Of a DNA stretch of 64,000 bases, positions 14,935 to 61,201 are shown in pieces. Numbering within the stretch: position 1 is the first letter of the stretch; every line of letters begins with the position of its first letter. The notes below the pieces were generated by a model. It was given only the letters and a program-made list of their open reading frames with translations, did no database searches and had not been told where the DNA came from. The position numbers and the translations under genes were made by a program. Source of the DNA: an uncultured Candidatus Saccharibacteria bacterium (GTDB taxonomy: Bacteria > Patescibacteriota > CPR2 > UBA1875 > CAIMLA01); assembly GCA_964501135.1 (NCBI GenBank), contig CAZCRI010000001.1, positions 128,393-192,392 on the forward strand, given 5' to 3'.

Positions 14935-15003
14935 TCCCAAACAAAATTAATTTTAGCTGTCATTCCCGCGAAAGCGGGAATCTTTTTCGTCTATCGTCGT
15001 TAC

Positions 15004-15182
15004 ATTTACCGCTTTTGGCAGCAAAAGCGGTGCAAAACTGCCGACTCCTTGCAAGATTGCCAGTGTCACTCCTCCTTCACTCTTTCTTAAAAGACAAAAC
15101 TCGTCCGCCTGTAGGCGGACTCAAACATTGCCATTTTAAGATAATCGCTTAGTTCGTCGTTCGCTGTATTTCGCAGGTCGCG
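15004..15182. repeat. copy A of an about 180-bp structured intergenic repeat (partner at 53016-53197)
   Basis: about 90% identity to copy B; hairpins CCGCTTTTG-GCAG-CAAAAGCGG and GTCCGCC-TGTA-GGCGGAC; compensatory substitutions in second hairpin. Confidence 0.7.
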
Positions 15183-15213
15183 GAGCGAGGGTATTATTCA
15201 CGGTTAACGGGAT

Positions 15214-20221: not shown

Positions 20222-21136
20222 GTGAGTTTTTCTGCTATAATACCTACTATGCGATGCGACCAAGAAGTAATCAGAAGACTCCTTGCTAGGAAGAAGAGCC
20301 GCAAGGATGACTACAAAATAGGTCTAATAGTTCAAGGAGGAGGGATGCGAGGCGCCTTTTCTAGTGGCGCTATGATGGGTCTCGACGACTTGGGGCTTAC
20401 AAATGCCTTTGATTATGTCTATGGAGCTTCATCGGGTAGCTGCGCGGGGGCTTATCTCTTATCGGGTCAAATTCAAACCGCTGGCTCTATATACTGGGAT
20501 TACCTTTACGGTTTTCGTTTTATCAAGCCATGGCAATGGGGAAGAATCCTCGATCTTGACTACCTTTGTGACGATTTATTCCGAAATGAGCACAAGCTAG
20601 ACGTGAAGAAATTACGCAAGAACCCGGCAATACTCAAGGTGTACCTCACGGATAGTAGGACTGGACGTAGTGAATTTGTAACCAATCGTGACGATGATGA
20701 TATGGTCACGGCAATCAAGGCGTCCTGTTCTTTGCCTGCATACTACAAGGAACCGATAGAGCTTCGAGGAAGGGCATACTATGATGGTAACGTCGGAAAG
20801 GCACTTGCCTTCGAGGAGGCCCTTCGTGATGGATGTACTGATTTATTAGTGATTACTACGGTTGCGGAGAATGTCAAAGATTCGCCATTCCTCAGCCGCT
20901 TTCTGACTTTTGGATTTAGCAGTAAAGTAAGAGAGATGGTGAAGCCAAAGTTACTCTACTATCAAGAGAACCTGGCGATGGTTTTCGGACGCAAGAAATT
21001 CAAAGGGGTAAATATATATACCATTGCACCATCAACCACCTTATTTAGGGCAGAGATCCGCCAGAAAGTTTTGGCAAAGACCGGGAAGCAAGGACACGAC
21101 GCAGTAATTAAGGCATTCGAGAAAGGAAGTAAATGA
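20222..21136 (+). CDS. patatin-like phospholipase
   Basis: GGGMRGAFSSG oxyanion motif, GASSG serine motif, DGN near C-term; alternative leaderless ATG start at 20249 just after TATAAT 20236-20241. Confidence 0.75.
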   Translation: MSFSAIIPTMRCDQEVIRRLLARKKSRKDDYKIGLIVQGGGMRGAFSSGAMMGLDDLGLTNAFDYVYGASSGSCAGAYLLSGQIQTAGSIYWDYLYGFRFIKPWQWGRILDLDYLCDDLFRNEHKLDVKKLRKNPAILKVYLTDSRTGRSEFVTNRDDDDMVTAIKASCSLPAYYKEPIELRGRAYYDGNVGKALAFEEALRDGCTDLLVITTVAENVKDSPFLSRFLTFGFSSKVREMVKPKLLYYQENLAMVFGRKKFKGVNIYTIAPSTTLFRAEIRQKVLAKTGKQGHDAVIKAFEKGSK

Positions 21137-21537
21137 ACAAGATGATTATAAATACGGACGGTGGCTCTCGTGGTAACCCTGGACCAGCTGGCATCGGGGT
21201 GGTATTTAGCGATGAAAACGGAGATGTGGTTGCTTCTTTTAAGGAATGTATTGGCGAGGAAACCAATAACACCGCAGAGTACCGAGCGCTTATCCTTGCT
21301 CTCGAGAAGGCTAAAGATTTTGAATTCTCCGAGGCAGAGTGTCGCCTCGATAGTGAGCTCGTGGTCAAGCAACTGCTTGGCCAGTATAAAGTAAAGGATG
21401 CCAAGATGAAGTTGCTTTACGCTCAAGTACAAGAATTGATGTTCTTTCGACCTGTAAAATTTGTTCATGTCAGGCGTGAATTCAATAAACTTGCTGATGC
21501 TTTAGTAAATGAAGCACTAGACGAAGCCGGTTTTTAG
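21133..21537 (+). CDS. ribonuclease H type 1-like protein
   Basis: INTDGGSRGNPGPAGIGVV...NNTAEYRALILAL...D-E-D catalytic pattern; overlaps patatin gene stop (ATGA). Confidence 0.7.
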   Translation: MNKMIINTDGGSRGNPGPAGIGVVFSDENGDVVASFKECIGEETNNTAEYRALILALEKAKDFEFSEAECRLDSELVVKQLLGQYKVKDAKMKLLYAQVQELMFFRPVKFVHVRREFNKLADALVNEALDEAGF

Positions 21538-21574: not shown

Positions 21575-21966
21575 GTTCAGCTAGCTAGACAATCGCCCCC
21601 TTGGGGGAGGAAAGTCCGGGCACTACATGATTGGAATAGTTGCTAACGGCAACCGGTCGTGAGGCTAGGGAAAGTGCCACAGAGACAATACTGCCGATGG
21701 CTCGAAAGAGTACAGGTGATGGTGAAAAGAGTGAGGTAAGAGCGCACAGTGGGTTGTGGTGACACAACTCAGAGGTAAACCCTATTTGGTGCAAGACAGG
21801 TGGGCTAGGGTAAGGTCGATATGATCGCTTGGGGTAAAATCCAAGTAGTCTCCAATTCGAAAAAGCTGTAATCAGAGCCCCTTACCTGCGGTCCTGTCGC
21901 GTAGATAGATGATTGTCAGATCCTAGCAATAGGACGAACAAAACCCGGCTTATCGGCTAACTGAAC
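21575..21966 (+). ncRNA. rnpB: RNase P RNA, bacterial type A
   Basis: P4 strands GGAAAGTCCGGGC and ACAAAACCCGGCTTATCGG; P1 pairing GTTCAGCTAGC/GCTAACTGAAC; extended -10 TGtTATAAT at 21560-21568; terminator follows. Confidence 0.85.
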
Positions 21967-21970
21967 ACTA

Positions 21971-44595: not shown

Positions 44596-44937
44596 CTACG
44601 ACCTAAGTATAAATAGTATTAGGAATCCAAATAGGGTATAAAATCCGAGCCATAAAATACTGTATATCACAGCTCTTGTACCATCATCCTTTTTGCCGTC
44701 AAGAAACAGTAACAGAGGTTTCCCAAAAGTTAGCCCGCCAACGATAGCTGCTGACAGACAAAAGAGCAGTAGTAATACGAAGGGCGTAAGCATGTTATCT
44801 GTCTCACCAAAAATTTTTGAACCATTTTGCATTAGTTGCGATACGCCGAAAATATAGAGCGAGGCGACTGATAGGTTTCGGAATGTTATTAACAATAGTT
44901 TGTCTTTCATATATACATGATAACAAAAATATTCCAC
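44596..44937 (-). CDS. small integral membrane protein, hypothetical
   Basis: 113 aa, three hydrophobic helices. Confidence 0.45.
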   Translation of the reverse strand: MEYFCYHVYMKDKLLLITFRNLSVASLYIFGVSQLMQNGSKIFGETDNMLTPFVLLLLFCLSAAIVGGLTFGKPLLLFLDGKKDDGTRAVIYSILWLGFYTLFGFLILFILRS

Positions 44938-44953
44938 ATTTGTGGAATATTTT

Positions 44954-44998
44954 TGGTGGAGCGTAGTAGATGAAGCTTGGAACTACTACACTCCACCA
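44954..44998. repeat. palindromic repeat copy 1 (TGGTGGAGCGTAGTAG-ATGAAGCTTGGAA-CTACTACACTCCACCA), preceded by terminator-like hairpin
   Basis: near-perfect 16-bp inverted arms; shares 36-bp core with copies at 47144 and 47858. Confidence 0.8.
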
Positions 44999-45014
44999 TT
45001 GACGTGTATTTAGT

Positions 45015-45701
45015 TTATCTTGCTACTAGAGTCTTAAGTTTCTTTGGGAGAAAGTAATTTAGATGCCAAAGGATATGTAGAATAGATATTTCTGCCATCA
45101 TAGTACCACCAATTACATGCCAGTAAATTGTTGAGAACGGGAAATTCAAGACTAGACCGTAGGTAACCTTGAGCACTAGGAGGGTTCCGAATATGCCTGC
45201 TGGCACAAAGCTAAATAGAAGTATGTAGTTCCAAATTTTTCTATGTGTAATTGTCTTAATTTTCTTAAACTTTGAAAGTAACCAAGTTACCAGATATAGT
45301 ATAAGCGTCACTATAGTAACTTCTAGGAAATAATAATTTTTTGTTGGATTCTTAATTTCTTCAGCCTTTTCTTGCTTCTTAGTAGTGATAACCTGTTCTG
45401 TAGAGGTTCCGCTGTTTGTTATCAACGATTTCGCAATATCATTAGCAGAACTAGGTTCGAGGCCAGCATTATCATGTAATTTCTGAATTTCATCAGAAGA
45501 GCTAACGTTTATATTTAGGAGCTTACCTAAATTATTTGCATATTCGGTTGCGGAAATCTTATAAAAATCCGCGACTTCTTGTATGCTCATGGTTTTGATT
45601 TCACCACCGCTGAGAGTTGATTCATCGGCTTCAGCAAAAACAGCTGTTAGGGGAGCGAGAATTAGAATTATTCCCAGAGTGATTAGTAGTTTCTTAAGCA
45701 T
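45015..45701 (-). CDS. hypothetical protein with signal peptide and C-terminal multi-TM domain
   Basis: 228 aa; MLKKLLITLGIILILAPLTAVFA signal; C-terminal hydrophobic helices. Confidence 0.5.
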   Translation of the reverse strand: MLKKLLITLGIILILAPLTAVFAEADESTLSGGEIKTMSIQEVADFYKISATEYANNLGKLLNINVSSSDEIQKLHDNAGLEPSSANDIAKSLITNSGTSTEQVITTKKQEKAEEIKNPTKNYYFLEVTIVTLILYLVTWLLSKFKKIKTITHRKIWNYILLFSFVPAGIFGTLLVLKVTYGLVLNFPFSTIYWHVIGGTMMAEISILHILWHLNYFLPKKLKTLVAR

Positions 45702-45912
45702 TTCTATAGGCCTCCTTTATTTACTTAAGATAATATGAATATAAACTGAGAAAAACCTGAGAACGGTAAACATCAGACCTTGAAAACGCCATGGTAAAAC
45801 TTTGCCTGCCCGACCCCGGAGTGATTTTAGTGTGTTTGAATGCTAGGGATACTCCTGATTGAGCGCTTTAAGGTTGTAGGGTACAATTATTAGATTAATT
45901 TAGGAGAAATAA

Positions 45913-46101
45913 ATGCCGATCTATGTTTATAAAGCGAAATGCCCGCAAGACCATGTTTGTCCTGCCATGAGAGTTTGCCCAGTGTCTGCACTTTCTCAAG
46001 AGGGATTCGACGCTCCAGTAGTAGATAAAGATAAGTGTATAGAATGTGGGGCTTGTTCAAGGTTGTGTCCTATGGGCGCTTTGCAGTTTATGAAGGAGTA
46101 G
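45913..46101 (+). CDS. small 4Fe-4S ferredoxin-like protein
   Basis: CIECGACSRLCP cluster motif plus second Cys group; GGAG RBS. Confidence 0.6.
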   Translation: MPIYVYKAKCPQDHVCPAMRVCPVSALSQEGFDAPVVDKDKCIECGACSRLCPMGALQFMKE

Positions 46102-46141
46102 TGGTTTGACTCGACGGGTTCGAGTCTATAATATGTAGTAG

Positions 46142-47107
46142 ATGGATGTGTTTATACCTATTCAAATATTTGCTGATATGTTGGTTTACAATGTATTTCA
46201 CGTAGCCAAGGGGAGTGCTCTTGGTAACACTCTGAACTTTTTTGTATATGATACGATAAAAATTCTTATTTTATTAACTGTTATTATCTTCATAGTTTCC
46301 CTGATAAGGTCATATTTTCCTCCCGAGAAAACAAAGAGGCTGCTCGGCAAACACGATAAAACACTTTTGGGTAATTTCCTTGCCGCTTTACTTGGTATCG
46401 TTACTCCCTTTTGCTCGTGTTCTGCGGTTCCGTTATTTATGGGATTCGTTCAAGCCGGGATACCATTAGGGACAACATTTTCTTTTCTTATCTCATCACC
46501 GATGGTAAATGAAGTAGCCCTAGTGCTTCTTTGGGGCCTGTTCGGCTGGAAGATTGCTGTTATCTATATAGTTTCAGGAGTAGTCATCGCTACTGTGGGT
46601 GGTTGGGTTATGGGTAAGCTAAAGCTCGAAAGGTGGGTCGAAGAGTTTGTTTATAAAATGGTAGTTGGCAGTAAATCCGAAAAGGAACTATCTGTAAACG
46701 ACCGACTGGTATACGCAAAAAAATATGTGATAGAGATTGTTAGTAGTGTATGGATATACATTGTTATTGGCGTAGGTCTAGGCGCCCTGATGCATGGTTA
46801 TGCGCCAAGTGACTTTCTAGCGAGATTCGCAGGTCCAGATAATCCATTCGCAGTTCCTATGGCTGTGCTCGTAGGTATCCCTTTGTACTCAAATGCTGCA
46901 GGAACAGTACCAATCGTCTCTGTTTTGGTAGATAGGGGAATGGCGATGGGAACAGCCCTTGCTTTTATGATGTCAGTTACAGCCTTATCATTACCAGAAT
47001 TTATTATTTTGAAGAAAATACTTAAACCCAAGTTGATAGCTACTTATGCTGCTATTGTGGGACTAGGAATCATCTTCATAGGCTATCTTTTTAATATAAT
47101 ACTATAA
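46142..47107 (+). CDS. DUF318/ArsP-family permease (putative organoarsenical efflux permease)
   Basis: multi-TM; conserved TPFCSCS motif (GIVTPFCSCSAVPL). Confidence 0.6.
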   Translation: MDVFIPIQIFADMLVYNVFHVAKGSALGNTLNFFVYDTIKILILLTVIIFIVSLIRSYFPPEKTKRLLGKHDKTLLGNFLAALLGIVTPFCSCSAVPLFMGFVQAGIPLGTTFSFLISSPMVNEVALVLLWGLFGWKIAVIYIVSGVVIATVGGWVMGKLKLERWVEEFVYKMVVGSKSEKELSVNDRLVYAKKYVIEIVSSVWIYIVIGVGLGALMHGYAPSDFLARFAGPDNPFAVPMAVLVGIPLYSNAAGTVPIVSVLVDRGMAMGTALAFMMSVTALSLPEFIILKKILKPKLIATYAAIVGLGIIFIGYLFNIIL

Positions 47108-47143
47108 AACAAAAAAGGCTTTATCAAGCCTTAATAATTGTCA

Positions 47144-47177
47144 TGGTGGAGCGTAGTAGATGAAGTTTGGAACTACT
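47144..47177. repeat. palindromic repeat copy 2 (core TGGTGGAGCGTAGTAGATGAAGTTTGGAACTACT), preceded by terminator hairpin 47115-47132
   Basis: 34/36 identical to copy 1 core. Confidence 0.8.
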
Positions 47178-47183
47178 TTGAAG

Positions 47184-47783
47184 CTAAAGACCTTTTATCG
47201 TTTCAACAAGCTCGGGGAAATGTTCTAGTTTAAAATGACCCTTGTCGTCAAATAATATAACCTCAGATTTCGGTGATTCTTCGTTATATTTATAGACATG
47301 GTCTAAAGGAACCACTATATCATCTTTGCTTTGAATTAGAATTATCTTATTAGTTTGATCATTTAAACCAATAAGTGATTTTGTTAAAGTAAATGACCCT
47401 AATTCTTCATCTTCAAGCTCTTCATAAGGAGCTGAGACTAATATTACGGCCTTTATGGTTTTGGGGAATTTGTTTTCAGATAAATACTTCGCAAGAAATA
47501 TTCCACCAAGCGAATGGCCGATAAGAATTACATTATTATTGAGGAGGGGAATTATTTTCTCAAACCAAATTGACCACTCTGTGTATTGAGCATTGGTTCC
47601 GTTTGGCATTCTAGGGCTTAAAACTTCATAGTCATCACCAAGATCTGCCGCTAAAGAATCTTTCCATGCCAGTGTATATTTTAACTTTTCTGGTTTGAGA
47701 ACGTATGCTTTCAGATATTCAAGATAATTCCCATAGCTTGAGAAGGTTGTCCCACCGTGAATTATTAAAACTTGTTGTTTCAT
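47184..47783 (-). CDS. alpha/beta-hydrolase-fold serine esterase (RBBP9/YdeN-like)
   Basis: GHSLGG nucleophile elbow, Asp and His downstream. Confidence 0.65.
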   Translation of the reverse strand: MKQQVLIIHGGTTFSSYGNYLEYLKAYVLKPEKLKYTLAWKDSLAADLGDDYEVLSPRMPNGTNAQYTEWSIWFEKIIPLLNNNVILIGHSLGGIFLAKYLSENKFPKTIKAVILVSAPYEELEDEELGSFTLTKSLIGLNDQTNKIILIQSKDDIVVPLDHVYKYNEESPKSEVILFDDKGHFKLEHFPELVETIKGL

Positions 47784-47857
47784 AGATACATTTTAACACA
47801 AAACTAGTTCAAACATTTACCTAAAACCATGATAATGCCTTTTATAAGGCATTATCA

Positions 47858-47893
47858 TGGTGGAGCGTAGTAGAAGAAGTTTGGAACTACTAC
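47858..47893. repeat. palindromic repeat copy 3 (core TGGTGGAGCGTAGTAGAAGAAGTTTGGAACTACTAC), preceded by 10-bp-stem hairpin 47831-47856
   Basis: same orientation as copies 1 and 2. Confidence 0.8.
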
Positions 47894-47959
47894 TCGCTAG
47901 CTTGCCGGTAATGGAAATCAGTACTTACTACAGTGTCTGTTTCGTAATATAATTTAACT

Positions 47960-48934
47960 ATGATAGGTATCGTCACTTTAATCGTTGTTGGCTTCTGCCT
48001 CCTAGTGCTTGGAGGGAATTTTGTGGTCAAGGGGGCAACATCTTTCGCTAAGAAACTGGGTATACCGACACTGATCGTTGGGCTCACCGTGGTTGCTTTT
48101 GGTACTAGTGTCCCAGAACTTTTTGTAACTACCGCTTCGACACTAAAGGGTGTCAGTGAATTTGCCCTATCAGATATTATAGGTAGTAATATAGTTAACT
48201 CACTAATGATATTGGGCGTAGCTATAGCCATAAGGCCCATAAAGACAAGCTCAAAGGCTATCCATAGGCTTCTTTATTCACTAACTATTTTTTCTTTACT
48301 CTTTTGGATTGTTTCCGACAGGATATTTATATTAAAGCCGAATGTTATAGATATTGGCTTTTTGGAAGGACTCATTTTACTAGGTGCCTTTTCATACTTC
48401 ATATTCACTCATATTCGTAAGGTTTACCTAGATAACAATGAAAAACAACTGACAGAAGAGTATGAAAGAGCGGAGCCAGGTATTTTATCAACTGCTCAAT
48501 CTATATTAGAAATTAGTATTGGCGTCGTAGCACTAACGTTTGGTGCAAAGTTTGTGGTAGACAATGCCGTGCAAATATGTGAAATGTTTAATATTAGTAA
48601 AACGTATATAGGCCTAACCGTTCTTACTCTCGGTACATCACTACCAGAGCTGGCGACAGTAATCGTTGCTTCGTTAAAAGATGAGGGAGAGATAGTGCTA
48701 GGTAATATCATTGGCAGTAATATATTTAATATCGCGTTTATCCTCGGCATCTCTGGCCTAGTGGGTGGTATTTCGGCTAACGGAATGATGAGAGTAGACA
48801 TTATATTTATGATACTTGTGGGTATCCTTCTTCACTATATCGCAGATAAAAAGAAGATATACTCTAAGGTATTTGGATACCAGCTCATCGCACTTTATCT
48901 GACCTACTTTATATTAATTTCTTTTAGAGGCTGA
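47960..48934 (+). CDS. CaCA-family sodium/calcium exchanger membrane protein (YrbG-like)
   Basis: two alpha-repeat motifs GTSVPELFVT and GTSLPELATV. Confidence 0.8.
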   Translation: MIGIVTLIVVGFCLLVLGGNFVVKGATSFAKKLGIPTLIVGLTVVAFGTSVPELFVTTASTLKGVSEFALSDIIGSNIVNSLMILGVAIAIRPIKTSSKAIHRLLYSLTIFSLLFWIVSDRIFILKPNVIDIGFLEGLILLGAFSYFIFTHIRKVYLDNNEKQLTEEYERAEPGILSTAQSILEISIGVVALTFGAKFVVDNAVQICEMFNISKTYIGLTVLTLGTSLPELATVIVASLKDEGEIVLGNIIGSNIFNIAFILGISGLVGGISANGMMRVDIIFMILVGILLHYIADKKKIYSKVFGYQLIALYLTYFILISFRG

Positions 48935-48975
48935 TACTGGTGTATAGTAGGAAGAGATTAAGTTAAGGGAGAAAC

Positions 48976-49167
48976 ATGAAACTATTTCACGATTATACAT
49001 TCAATTGGTGGCAGTTGGGGATATTCAAGCTTTCACTACTATCTATCGGCGTTATTCTCGGTGCTTATTGGAGCGATCTTTTCCTTAGTAACCTCATCTA
49101 TGTTTCGGTCGTTGTGATTATCTCAACTTTGTATGTTTTAATTATCGCCCTAAAGCAAACTAAATAA
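48976..49167 (+). CDS. small membrane protein (63 aa), hypothetical
   Basis: two hydrophobic helices; GGGAG RBS. Confidence 0.4.
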   Translation: MKLFHDYTFNWWQLGIFKLSLLSIGVILGAYWSDLFLSNLIYVSVVVIISTLYVLIIALKQTK

Positions 49168-49225
49168 TAAAAAAAGCCTCATGCGAGGTATTTTTATTGG
49201 CTTATTAGAGCCATAATACAGGCAT

Positions 49226-49621
49226 TGGTGGAGCTGGTGGGTACTGCCCCCACGTCCGAAAGCGAAGCCGAAATAATTTGTAACAATCATACTCGGGACT
49301 GGTAGTTTTGGTGCTGATGGTCAAGTCTCGAGAAAATCCATCGGCCTTATCCTCTAGAGTTTCAGGTTAGCTTAGAGAAGTCACTAGCCCTACCCCTGAC
49401 ATATATGGCACTCAGTAGCGAACGATTCAGGTCTCACTCACAAGAGCGGTTACTGCGTATTAGGCAGCAACTGGCGCAAAGCTGTTTACGCTGAAAGCGC
49501 TAGCAACCTTACTAACAAAGTTTTTTGCAACTATGTCTGATCTGCTGAATAACGCGGACAGACCACCGCGGATTGTATCATTTCGATTTCAAGATACCTT
49601 CGTCGAAGCTAATTCAGCCCC
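49226..49621 (-). ncRNA. ssrA: tmRNA (SsrA), standard one-piece
   Basis: minus strand 5' GGGGCUGAAUUAGCUUCGACGAAGG..., 3' ...GUGGGGGCAGUACCCACCAGCUCCACCA; acceptor pairing with G3-U70; resume GCA after AUAGUU; predicted tag (A)KNFVSKVASAFSVNSFAPVAA ending UAA; smpB 3.6 kb away. Confidence 0.8.
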
Positions 49622-52922: not shown

Positions 52923-53015
52923 CTCCACTGTCATCCCTGGTCGCAAGCCAGGGACCCAGGTCTAATTCTCTTGTCATTCCGACCGCAGCGGAGGAATCTC
53001 TTCGCACCTCCATAT

Positions 53016-53197
53016 ATTTACCGCTTTTGGCAGCAAAAGCGGTGCAAAACTGCCGACTCCTTGCAAAATCGCTAGTGTCACTCCTCCCTCACTCTTTCTT
53101 AAAAGACAAAACTCTCCCGACGGTAGCGTCGGACTCAAACATTGCCATTTTAAGATAATCGCTTAGTCCGTCGTTCGCTGTATTTTGCAGGTCGCGG
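53016..53197. repeat. copy B of about 180-bp structured intergenic repeat (partner at 15004-15182)
   Basis: see copy A; second hairpin here CCGACG-GTAG-CGTCGG. Confidence 0.7.
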
Positions 53198-53212
53198 TAG
53201 GGGAAATACCGA

Positions 53213-58803: not shown

Positions 58804-59139
58804 ATGGCCTACGATTTAGAACAAAAGGCCTTAATGTTTAGTAAAAATGTATTCATATTTTGCAAAGCATTGCCCCAGGATGCTGTGACTAGACCCATAA
58901 TAAGTCAGGTAGTCCGCTCTTCTGCCTCCATCGGGGCAAATTACATAGAAGCAAACGAGTCTTTGGGCAAGAAGGATCTCGTCTATAAACTAAAAATTTC
59001 TCGCAAAGAAGCAAAAGAAACTATTTATTGGCTAGAAATAATGTCTACGGTAGTTTCTTCAGAGGAGATTAAGAAATTATCCGAGGAGGCCCTACAGCTC
59101 AAAAAGATTCTGTCCTCGATAATCATTAAGTCATCTTAG
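58804..59139 (+). CDS. four-helix-bundle protein (23S rRNA intervening-sequence protein family)
   Basis: AAAGGAGGGGAG RBS; family pattern SSASIGANYIEANESLGKKDLVYKLKISRKEAKETIYWLEI. Confidence 0.65.
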   Translation: MAYDLEQKALMFSKNVFIFCKALPQDAVTRPIISQVVRSSASIGANYIEANESLGKKDLVYKLKISRKEAKETIYWLEIMSTVVSSEEIKKLSEEALQLKKILSSIIIKSS

Positions 59140-60425: not shown

Positions 60426-61092
60426 TACGCTGAAAAACCTGAATACTCGGAATTAAGGTTACTTAAGCGTGTTCCTCTACCCCTGCAACCGAATTGCCTT
60501 GTGTGCATATACTGTCGCCGGGAGATAGTGAATATAACCGATGCAAGATGCGGGATCAACACCTTTCCGAGTAGGTGGGTCTCTCGCAAACTGGGACTGG
60601 CGGAAAAGTAGGCCGCGATAACAACAGAGGGTTTGCCTCAGTGGTCCACGCCGAAAGAGGTAGGCATAGAATTAGCCGACGCAACCTCCGCCGTTTCAAA
60701 GTCCAAGTCTACTACGTACCAGCTTCGTTTCAGGTACCTCTTGTAGGCGCAAGCCCTAGTCGAAACGCTGCGTTTGCTGCTGCCCTCGGGGCGGTAGGGA
60801 TGTAAGCTCACTGGCTGGGCAAAGTTCGGTGCCAGTAAGGCCCGCATGTAGAGTTGCGTAATGTCGCCACGGAGCAGAGAGCTCACGGCGCAGAGACTCC
60901 TACACGGGAACCGATTGGTACAAATCTAGGCCGGCATGGTGACCGTTACTGTGGTCACTTTGCCCTCGTTCGCGGATTTCGAACCGCGATTACGGGGGCC
61001 ATGCCAGCCCCTTCCATAGCTACAAACGCCTTGACAGAGGCATATATATAGGTTATACTCTTTTCTTGGTGCACTTCGGTGCCCATTTTCAT

Positions 61093-61201
61093 GGGGGGTA
61101 GCTCAGTGGATAGAGCGCCGTTTGTCAGATGGTCCGATCAACGGGTCATATCATCTGACGCTCGACGGAGGTCACAGGTTCGAGCCCTGTCCCCCCCACC
61201 A
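61093..61201 (+). tRNA. tRNA-like gene with canonical acceptor, D and T arms but a 34-nt insertion in the anticodon arm; identity undetermined
   Basis: GGGGGG.TAGCTCAGTGGATAGAGC..CCGTT[41 nt]GACGG-AGGTC-ACAGGTTCGAGCCCTGT-CCCCCCC-A-CCA; insertion forms 8-bp stem GTCAGATG/CATCTGAC. Confidence 0.55.

Follow-up and report, generated by a model that had tools for sequence, protein, structure and literature searches.

Integrative elements that target tRNA and transfer-messenger RNA (tmRNA) genes are treated by Williams (2002, as cited in 10.1101/2020.12.28.424599). In Dehalococcoides, tandem islands specific for ssrA, the tmRNA gene, carry 20-bp repeats of the ssrA end; their units are phage-sized, 16/31 carry the serine recombinase DsiB and about half are without an integration module (PMC3146451). 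The additive tRNA/tmRNA islands of Prochlorococcus (tycheposons) contain partial-tRNA scars (10.1101/2020.12.28.424599), and cis-mobilizable elements (CIMEs), as the concept is presented in PMC3146451, are formed by accretion at the att sites of integrative and conjugative or integrative and mobilizable elements. Here we examined a stretch of 64,000 nucleotides (the window) from an uncultured Candidatus Saccharibacteria bacterium (assembly GCA_964501135.1, contig CAZCRI010000001.1, positions 128,393 to 192,392), in which three direct copies of a short repeat block lie among accessory genes directly downstream of ssrA. On balance, these repeats are probably the recombination-junction sites of small integrase-less cassettes that were inserted serially and site-specifically at the ssrA 3' end and were mobilized in trans.

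Saccharibacteria are episymbionts with reduced genomes, and to our knowledge little is known about how Patescibacteria, the bacteria of the candidate phyla radiation (CPR) with genomes of ~1 Mb, acquire and exchange accessory genes. A further point of reference is the integron array (attI, attC, IntI), in which mostly single-open reading frame (ORF) cassettes of ~0.5-1 kb enter at a fixed insertion point and are closed by family-related sites. The literature searched contained no description of ssrA arrays in Saccharibacteria. Loci retrieved for comparison are designated below by L numbers; L012 belongs to assembly GCA_964511435.1 and L014 to GCA_041738615.1.

Three repeat blocks downstream of ssrA

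All three copies in the window lie downstream of ssrA and on its strand. The pattern TGGTGGAGCGTAGTAGATGAAGYTTGGAACTACTAC was matched on the plus strand at 44954-44989 (0 mismatches), 47144-47179 (2) and 47858-47893 (1), whereas 100 dinucleotide-preserving shuffles gave 0 matches (0 expected versus 3 seen). The three same-orientation copies listed in an earlier model-made inspection of this DNA, here called the sequence-only reading, are therefore real. Read on the ssrA strand, every copy terminates in GCTCCACCA, which is also the 3' terminus of ssrA (49226-49234). Pattern and profile scans of the 64-kb window outside the ssrA array found no further copy. Two other statements of the sequence-only reading were borne out as well: each copy has a separate terminator-like hairpin with a T run on its ssrA-strand 3' side (44926-44953, 47115-47132 and 47830-47857), and the gene calls agreed with Pfam (ferredoxin, ArsP_1, alpha/beta hydrolase, Na_Ca_ex, a small membrane ORF and a 228-aa protein without a match). 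From ssrA outward, the array is composed as follows.

49226-49621, minus strand: ssrA (tmRNA gene); Rfam RF00023, 84 bits, full length; ends ...CCCACCAGCTCCACCA
49176-49212: two hairpins 3' of the ssrA CCA, GGCTTATTAGAGCC at 49199-49212 and GCCTCATGCGAGGT with a T run at 49176-49189
47960-49167, plus strand: cargo of cassette A, a CaCA (Na_Ca_ex) antiporter gene at 47960-48934 and a 63-aa membrane ORF at 48976-49167 (Pfam), both opposite to ssrA
47858-47893, minus strand: block copy 3, GTAGTAGTTCCAAACTTCTTCTACTAC-GCTCCACCA on the ssrA strand; nhmmer E = 2e-13
47807-47857, minus strand: module after copy 3, a hairpin at 47830-47857 (-15.7 kcal/mol, z = -4.2), then promoter-like TTGAAC...TGTTAAAAT just upstream of the esterase start
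47184-47783, minus strand: cargo of cassette B, a lone alpha/beta-hydrolase (Ser_hydrolase, Pfam) gene with its stop codon 4 nt before the block
47144-47179, minus strand: block copy 2, a pattern and profile match
47106-47143, minus strand: module after copy 2, spacer TGACAATTATTA and terminator AAGGCTT-GATA-AAGCCTT with a T run (hairpin at 47115-47132)
45765-47105, plus strand: ferredoxin (45913-46101) and ArsP_1 permease (46142-47107) genes (Pfam) with their upstream region, an insertion relative to L012
45015-45764, minus strand: cargo of cassette C, a 228-aa protein of no assigned function and without a Pfam match, with its promoter region
44954-44998, minus strand: block copy 1 and, at 44990-44998, its core in inverted orientation, together forming a 16-bp hairpin; the most distal block, adjoining the conserved flank
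44926-44953, minus strand: hairpin with a T run after copy 1 (-14.0 kcal/mol, z = -5.0), followed by the start of the conserved 113-aa gene
44596-44937: conserved 113-aa gene, 68% identical to the gene adjoining GalT in L014

Beyond the last copy the 113-aa gene is followed by a GalT-like gene. The two hairpins at 49176-49212 could, judged by their sequence, terminate both ssrA and the convergent small-ORF gene.

Distribution of the block and its linkage to ssrA

Further copies were gathered by scans of public collections and by fuzzy and profile searches of the retrieved loci. In total, 25 block copies (19 intact and 6 degenerate) were obtained from 12 loci, mostly Saccharibacteria metagenome contigs. 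The ssrA gene is visible in seven of these loci (the window, L008, L009, L010, L012/L001, L014 and L017), and all 18 copies that they contain lie 0.4-10 kb downstream of ssrA on the ssrA strand; the 10 kb upstream of ssrA held no copy in any of the seven. Degenerate or partial copies are mostly distal to intact ones. Exact matches to the block are rare, occurring in two Genome Taxonomy Database (GTDB) species genomes and once in an 848-kb metagenome contig.

In the window, L008, L009, L010, L012, L014 and L017, ssrA is intact and encodes a full-length tmRNA with a paired acceptor stem (in the window, 5' GGGGCTG with 3' CAGCTCC). ARAGORN did not call ssrA in the window, probably because its T loop is the non-canonical GGCAGTA. 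A T loop of GGCAGTA or GGCGGTA in place of TTCRAnT was seen in the tmRNA of the window (49226-49260), L009, L010, L012 and L014, and canonical T loops are retained in L008, L016 and L017.

Two short-read contigs, L003 (1331 nt) and L008 (1288 nt), end inside a block or exactly at one. The repeat breaks assemblies, so such arrays are probably under-represented among metagenome-assembled genomes, and the block motif explains why assemblies break at these positions.

The conserved unit is a linear block

The conserved unit is a linear block, which on the ssrA strand consists of a cassette-side arm of ~21 nt, GTTCCAAACTTCWTCTACTAC, and a 9-nt core, GCTCCACCA, which exactly matches the 3'-terminal 9 nt of ssrA. 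The aligned copies have (ARNAG)TTCCAAACTTCWTCTACTACGCTCCACCA in common, with a 3' boundary that is sharp at CCA and a 5' boundary that fades.

The sequence-only reading had described a 36-bp palindromic element that folds as the T arm and acceptor of a tRNA-like minihelix, and this description did not survive comparison of the copies. A strong fold was obtained for copy 1 alone (-27.2 kcal/mol, z = -8.1), with a stem that reaches TGGTGGAGT...GCTCCACCA and takes in the inverted core copy, so that CCA is paired. Copy 3 folds weakly (-10.2 kcal/mol, z = -2.1) and copy 2 not at all (-3.4 kcal/mol, z = -0.5). The orthologous L012 copy of block 1 has kept the palindrome with a different sequence; comparison of 19 copies from 11 loci showed no conservation of the arm that lies opposite the block. 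Pairing was seen in 68% of cells for the 7-bp stem GTAGTAG/CTACTAC and in 70% for the T-arm-like 5-bp stem, as in shuffled controls, and neither stem shows covariation; two compensatory changes in the T-arm-like stem (L006_352 and L001_1558) were not significant. The TTCCAAA of the block does resemble a T loop, but the 5' stem is variable, and the distance from the stem to ACCA is 13 nt versus the canonical 7, an excess of 6 nt over a T arm plus acceptor. Rfam and ARAGORN gave no tRNA-like call on the block. As covariation does not exceed the controls and the geometry is 6 nt too long, the block is a linear motif and not a conserved minihelix.

The repeat had also been taken for a copy of the resident ssrA end, an identity that proved to be limited to the last 9 nt. 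The further claim that copy 3 shares the following ATGCC with ssrA was out of register: CCACCA is followed by ATGCC at ssrA and by TGATAATGCC at copy 3. An informal comparison with dif-like, IS200/IS605-like and attC-like architectures showed no matching symmetry or motifs.

One block of L014 (14882-14953) is split by an insertion of ~35 nt that contains a palindrome (...ATGAACACGTTCAT...), located between TCTAC and CTATGCTCCACCA.

The ssrA end and the block ends are equivalent junctions

Most CCA ends are followed by an AT-rich spacer and a hairpin, and most of these hairpins have a T run. Their stems differ (GGCTT/AAGCC, GCCTT/AAGGC, TACCTCAC/GTGAGGTA, ATTCCAC/GTGGAAT and others). Past the module hairpin, many cassettes have a TGnTATAAT -10 box and then the cargo start codon. 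These terminator assignments are based on folds made site by site; a generic promoter and terminator scan of the region gave no overall excess over shuffles.

The sequences that follow ssrA are homologous to sequences that follow blocks. In L010 the post-ssrA sequence is homologous to those after block L010_12073 and after the L005 block; in L012, to those after window copy 2 and L012_20116; and in L014 it matches the module of window copy 3 at 78% over 89 nt, up to the esterase start. In all three loci the homology includes the promoter. Therefore, the ssrA end and the block ends are equivalent junctions. Between blocks, the module of window copy 3 is 90% identical over 82 nt to L010 12902-12983, and block plus module of window copy 2 are 90.5% identical over 74 nt to L012 20081-20154.

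At 813-832 of L008, the ssrA end ACTCCACCA is directly followed by a degenerate second end, AGCTCCGCCA, before the cassette promoter. This tandem arrangement may be a scar left by excision or by an empty cassette.

Cargo turnover between conserved flanks

Orthologous loci were reached through homologues of the LPG-synthase-like gene that adjoins ssrA. Their common order is ArgRS-SmpB-GT4-GT2-LPG synthase-ssrA-[variable]-(113 aa / Zn ribbon)-GalT-MscS-ThrRS. Alignment of these loci, which the sequence-only reading had named as a check, showed common flanks and different cargo: the interval from ssrA to GalT holds unrelated genes among the window, L010, L012, L014, L016 and L017. The window array has a GC content of 35-40%, versus 42-48% in the flanks.

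With ssrA ends and blocks taken as boundaries, 20 non-redundant cassettes were delimited, 14 of them with a single ORF. Cassette lengths run from 0.37 to 8.7 kb with a median of ~0.8 kb, and the largest cassette is a nine-gene unit in L012. Cargo occurs in both orientations and is antisense to ssrA in 4/14 single-ORF cassettes, a number that rises if those with several ORFs are included.

One cassette is shared between two loci together with its sites. The 228-aa gene of window cassette C, taken with its promoter region and the sequence as far as the end of copy 1, is 73% identical in nucleotides and 82% in amino acids to L012 20150-20970. The L012 homologue is followed by a block with the same AATGGTGG extension and preceded by a block and module like those of window copy 2. 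Beyond the distal CCA of the shared cassette lies the conserved flank in the window versus another cassette in L012.

Not all related cargo is found in arrays. Homologues of the window esterase, 71-73% identical, occur in L020 and L021 outside arrays and with no blocks nearby; esterase cargo is therefore not always cassette-borne. Three other loci were set aside: L015 (unrelated actinobacterial-type context), L018 (ends before ssrA) and L019 (a distant homologue of the 228-aa protein in an unrelated context).

Proposed serial insertion at the ssrA 3' end

The anatomy of the site, its polarity, its exclusive linkage to ssrA, the turnover of cargo between conserved flanks and the homology of post-ssrA and post-block sequences are all observed. 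They agree with the proposal of the sequence-only reading that the array arose by serial insertion at the tmRNA 3' end, which is also favored by the confinement of the copies to one side and strand of ssrA in seven independent loci and by the cassette shared with its sites. We propose GCTCCACCA at the ssrA end as the insertion point or core. A circular cassette carrying arm, core and module would recombine at the core of the ssrA end, with the crossover within GCTCCACCA. ssrA would be regenerated intact, the incoming cassette would supply its new terminator, and the older junction would be displaced distally. The outcome would be ssrA-core / cargo / arm-core / cargo / arm-core ... conserved flank. 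The recombinase would act in trans, its gene lying at another place in the genome or on a helper element.

Several observations weigh against this interpretation. First, no recombinase was found. Among 62 non-overlapping window ORFs (at least 90 aa), Pfam detected no integrase, transposase or serine recombinase, and none was present in the gene tables of L010, L012, L014, L016 and L017 or among the Pfam-scanned ORFs of L001 and L007; the earlier statement that no integrase is present was thus borne out in these ORFs and gene tables. Second, there is no sign of a donor: two exact patterns had 0 matches in IMG/VR viral contigs, and BLAST with block plus terminator matched no phage or plasmid record, so that neither a free nor a phage-borne or plasmid-borne site was seen. 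Third, the block shares just 9 nt with ssrA, and an inverted-repeat core of the tyrosine-recombinase type is not evident. Fourth, the ferredoxin and ArsP pair sits inside cassette C, between terminator and promoter, with no block at either edge; the earlier statement that the repeats partition the cargo into cassettes thus stands for the block-bounded units and fails for this pair. Fifth, the blocks of one genome have variants in common (CTAT in L012, CTAC in the window), which leaves room for gene conversion or for a crossover at a more 5' position.

Two loci, moreover, depart from the rule of linkage. In L002, blocks lie beside tRNA-Leu and a tRNA-like fragment, and the locus ends there with ssrA not in view. 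In L007 (96-720), an inverted block abuts the 3' end of a GT2 homologue that is normally upstream of ssrA. The count of blocks in the window's own genome, finally, covers the 64-kb window.

The fragment in L002 (5110-5160) resembles the 3' end of a tRNA or tmRNA and has the canonical length (GGTTCAATTCCCGTTCGCTCCACCA plus terminator); it lies 50 nt after tRNA-Leu(taa) and heads the block array. Its sequence hints that the block family may derive from the 3' end of tRNA-Ala or tmRNA. The L007 block has as neighbours genes for a 453-aa protein of no assigned function and a KAP/AAA NTPase, and its arrangement suggests an inversion with one breakpoint at the array end.

Alternative explanations

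The sequence-only reading had regarded the repeats as scars of tandem islands. In this account each unit is the remnant of a larger, integrase-bearing prophage or island that had integrated in ssrA, which would account equally for polarity and ssrA linkage and has some support in the 8.7-kb unit of L012 and in the degenerate blocks, which show that decay occurs. Fragmented integrases and scars are found in other tRNA/tmRNA islands (10.1101/2020.12.28.424599). No integrase fragment was detected in the 20 units from 8 loci, however, the nine-gene unit included, and the 14 compact single-ORF units, many of them with their own promoter and terminator, would require repeated decay to exactly one intact gene, which is not parsimonious. 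Because the units are compact single genes without an integrase remnant, we favor mobilization in trans and consider decay of conventional islands unlikely.

Alternatively, the block itself could be the recombination partner, with a crossover at the T-loop-like TTCCAAA on its variable side, or RecA could recombine the ~100-bp units of block plus terminator by homology after DNA uptake; the proximity of ssrA would then be historical, a pseudo-ssrA end serving as landing pad. Conservation does stop 5' of TTCCAAA, and 3' of CCA there is similarity only at the level of families. The block variants shared within a genome suggest conversion, block and module are 90% identical over 74-82 nt in different cargo contexts, and the ferredoxin and ArsP genes came in without a block. 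Yet the true ssrA CCA bounds the first cassette of every array and is followed by a module homologous to the post-block modules, and homologous recombination alone cannot make a block at the end of each new cargo. We therefore give this explanation a low probability, below that of decayed islands.

A third possibility is that the block acts at the RNA level, as a tRNA/tmRNA-like 3' end on cassette transcripts that gives a processing, stabilizing or CCA-related signal, and is no DNA recombination site. Its terminal ACCA is that of the tmRNA 3' end, and for co-oriented genes it lies 4-35 nt past the stop codon and just before the terminator; the two isolated compensatory changes mentioned above would also fit. 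However, roughly one cargo gene in three runs antisense to the block, and cassette A of the window has no co-oriented gene. This explanation is disfavored because the polarity of the block follows ssrA and not the cargo. The lack of covariation above controls in either stem, the 6 extra nt and the absence of an Rfam or ARAGORN call count against it too, and in the palindromic copies a U70-A pair and a paired CCA would, from their sequence, leave no alanyl-tRNA synthetase identity. We regard an RNA-level role as very improbable.

The idea of a generic repetitive extragenic palindromic (REP)-, miniature inverted-repeat transposable element (MITE)- or terminator-like repeat that resembles the ssrA end by chance, which the sequence-only reading had kept as its own alternative, fits a short, partly palindromic, intergenic element with adjoining terminators but is hardly tenable and already largely refuted, since the check for dispersed copies found none elsewhere in the 64 kb and exact matches only in two GTDB species genomes and once in the 848-kb contig, since 18/18 copies from loci that include ssrA lie on its downstream side and on its strand, and since the palindrome is not conserved.

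Other features of the window

Two copies of an intergenic element of ~225 nt without an ORF were seen at 14960-15185 and 52975-53200, the second between GT4 and SmpB. They share a 185-nt core at 92-97% identity, and two internal hairpins differ between them by compensatory changes. The element had no family match in Rfam (best E = 0.095) and may, from its sequence, be a structured non-coding RNA. A tRNA gene at 61092-61198 (Rfam, 43.6 bits; no ARAGORN call) exceeds the standard length by ~35 nt, the extra sequence falling in the region from the anticodon arm to the variable region. A gene of the 23S rRNA intervening-sequence protein family is located at 58804-59139, and an RNase H / RVT_3-like gene (21133-21537) lies immediately upstream of RNase P RNA (21577-21968).

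Comparison with known systems

The ssrA-side locus is a recurrent, precisely delimited hot spot for one-gene units, at which transporters, hydrolases, nucleotide-metabolism genes and defence-like genes are swapped. The block motif offers a simple search key for such arrays and their recombinase in metagenomes. A recombinase acting in trans would make this a compact cassette system that has a minimal linear site and might find use as a tool.

The tandem ssrA islands of Dehalococcoides appear to be the nearest described system. As there, multiple tandem units lie directly downstream of a single-copy ssrA, their boundaries are set by ssrA and by direct repeats that match at least part of its 3' end, and the strain-variable region is enclosed by syntenic flanks; the half of the Dehalococcoides units that have no integration module were read as cis-mobilizable (PMC3146451). 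The repeat is different: in place of a true 20-bp copy of the ssrA end, 9 matching nt are joined to 21 conserved nt unrelated to ssrA. The units found here also have a median of ~0.8 kb, mostly hold one gene, carry a recombinase in 0/20 cases and belong to the phylum Patescibacteria.

Insertion in the 3' part of a tRNA-type gene that is itself kept intact is common to the elements targeting tRNA and tmRNA genes and to tycheposons. With additive islands the array further shares the distal displacement of older units by newcomers and the presence of partial tRNA-like scars and degenerate remnants throughout an island in a streamlined genome. The defining features of those islands, however, are integrases (tyrosine recombinases and others) and multi-gene modules, and the att repeats duplicate the target gene over typically ~40 nt, none of which applies here; a self-encoded integrative island was rejected because no integrase was found in any unit or locus scanned. 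The likeness to CIMEs lies in att-flanked tandem cargo without recombination or transfer genes, presumed to be moved in trans by a related integrase. The present cassettes are much smaller, and viral contigs, phages and plasmids held no cognate integrase-bearing element.

Like integrons, the arrays have short, mostly single-ORF cassettes, one insertion point and very high cargo turnover. Unlike integrons, they have no intI beside the insertion site, where the ssrA neighbors are LPG_synthase_TM, GT2, GT4 and SmpB; the site is linear, ~30 nt long, without a conserved fold and without R''/R' boxes; and cargo lies in both orientations, with its own promoter and terminator in many cassettes. An integron was ruled out by the lack of intI and of a folded attC, stem pairing being that of shuffled controls and only 1/3 window copies folding strongly. 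It is conceivable, although we hold it doubtful, that Saccharibacteria possess a dedicated tmRNA-anchored platform for gene capture, in which a trans-acting recombinase inserts and shuffles single-gene cassettes, many with their own terminator and promoter, using the ssrA end as an attI-like entry and a ~30-nt pseudo-tRNA cassette site; this would be an integron-like function evolved independently on linear instead of folded sites. The array is set apart from the known systems by the combination of integron-sized cassettes, no recombinase in the units examined, a repeat that is for the most part not a copy of the resident ssrA, and terminator-promoter modules that many cassettes bring with them.

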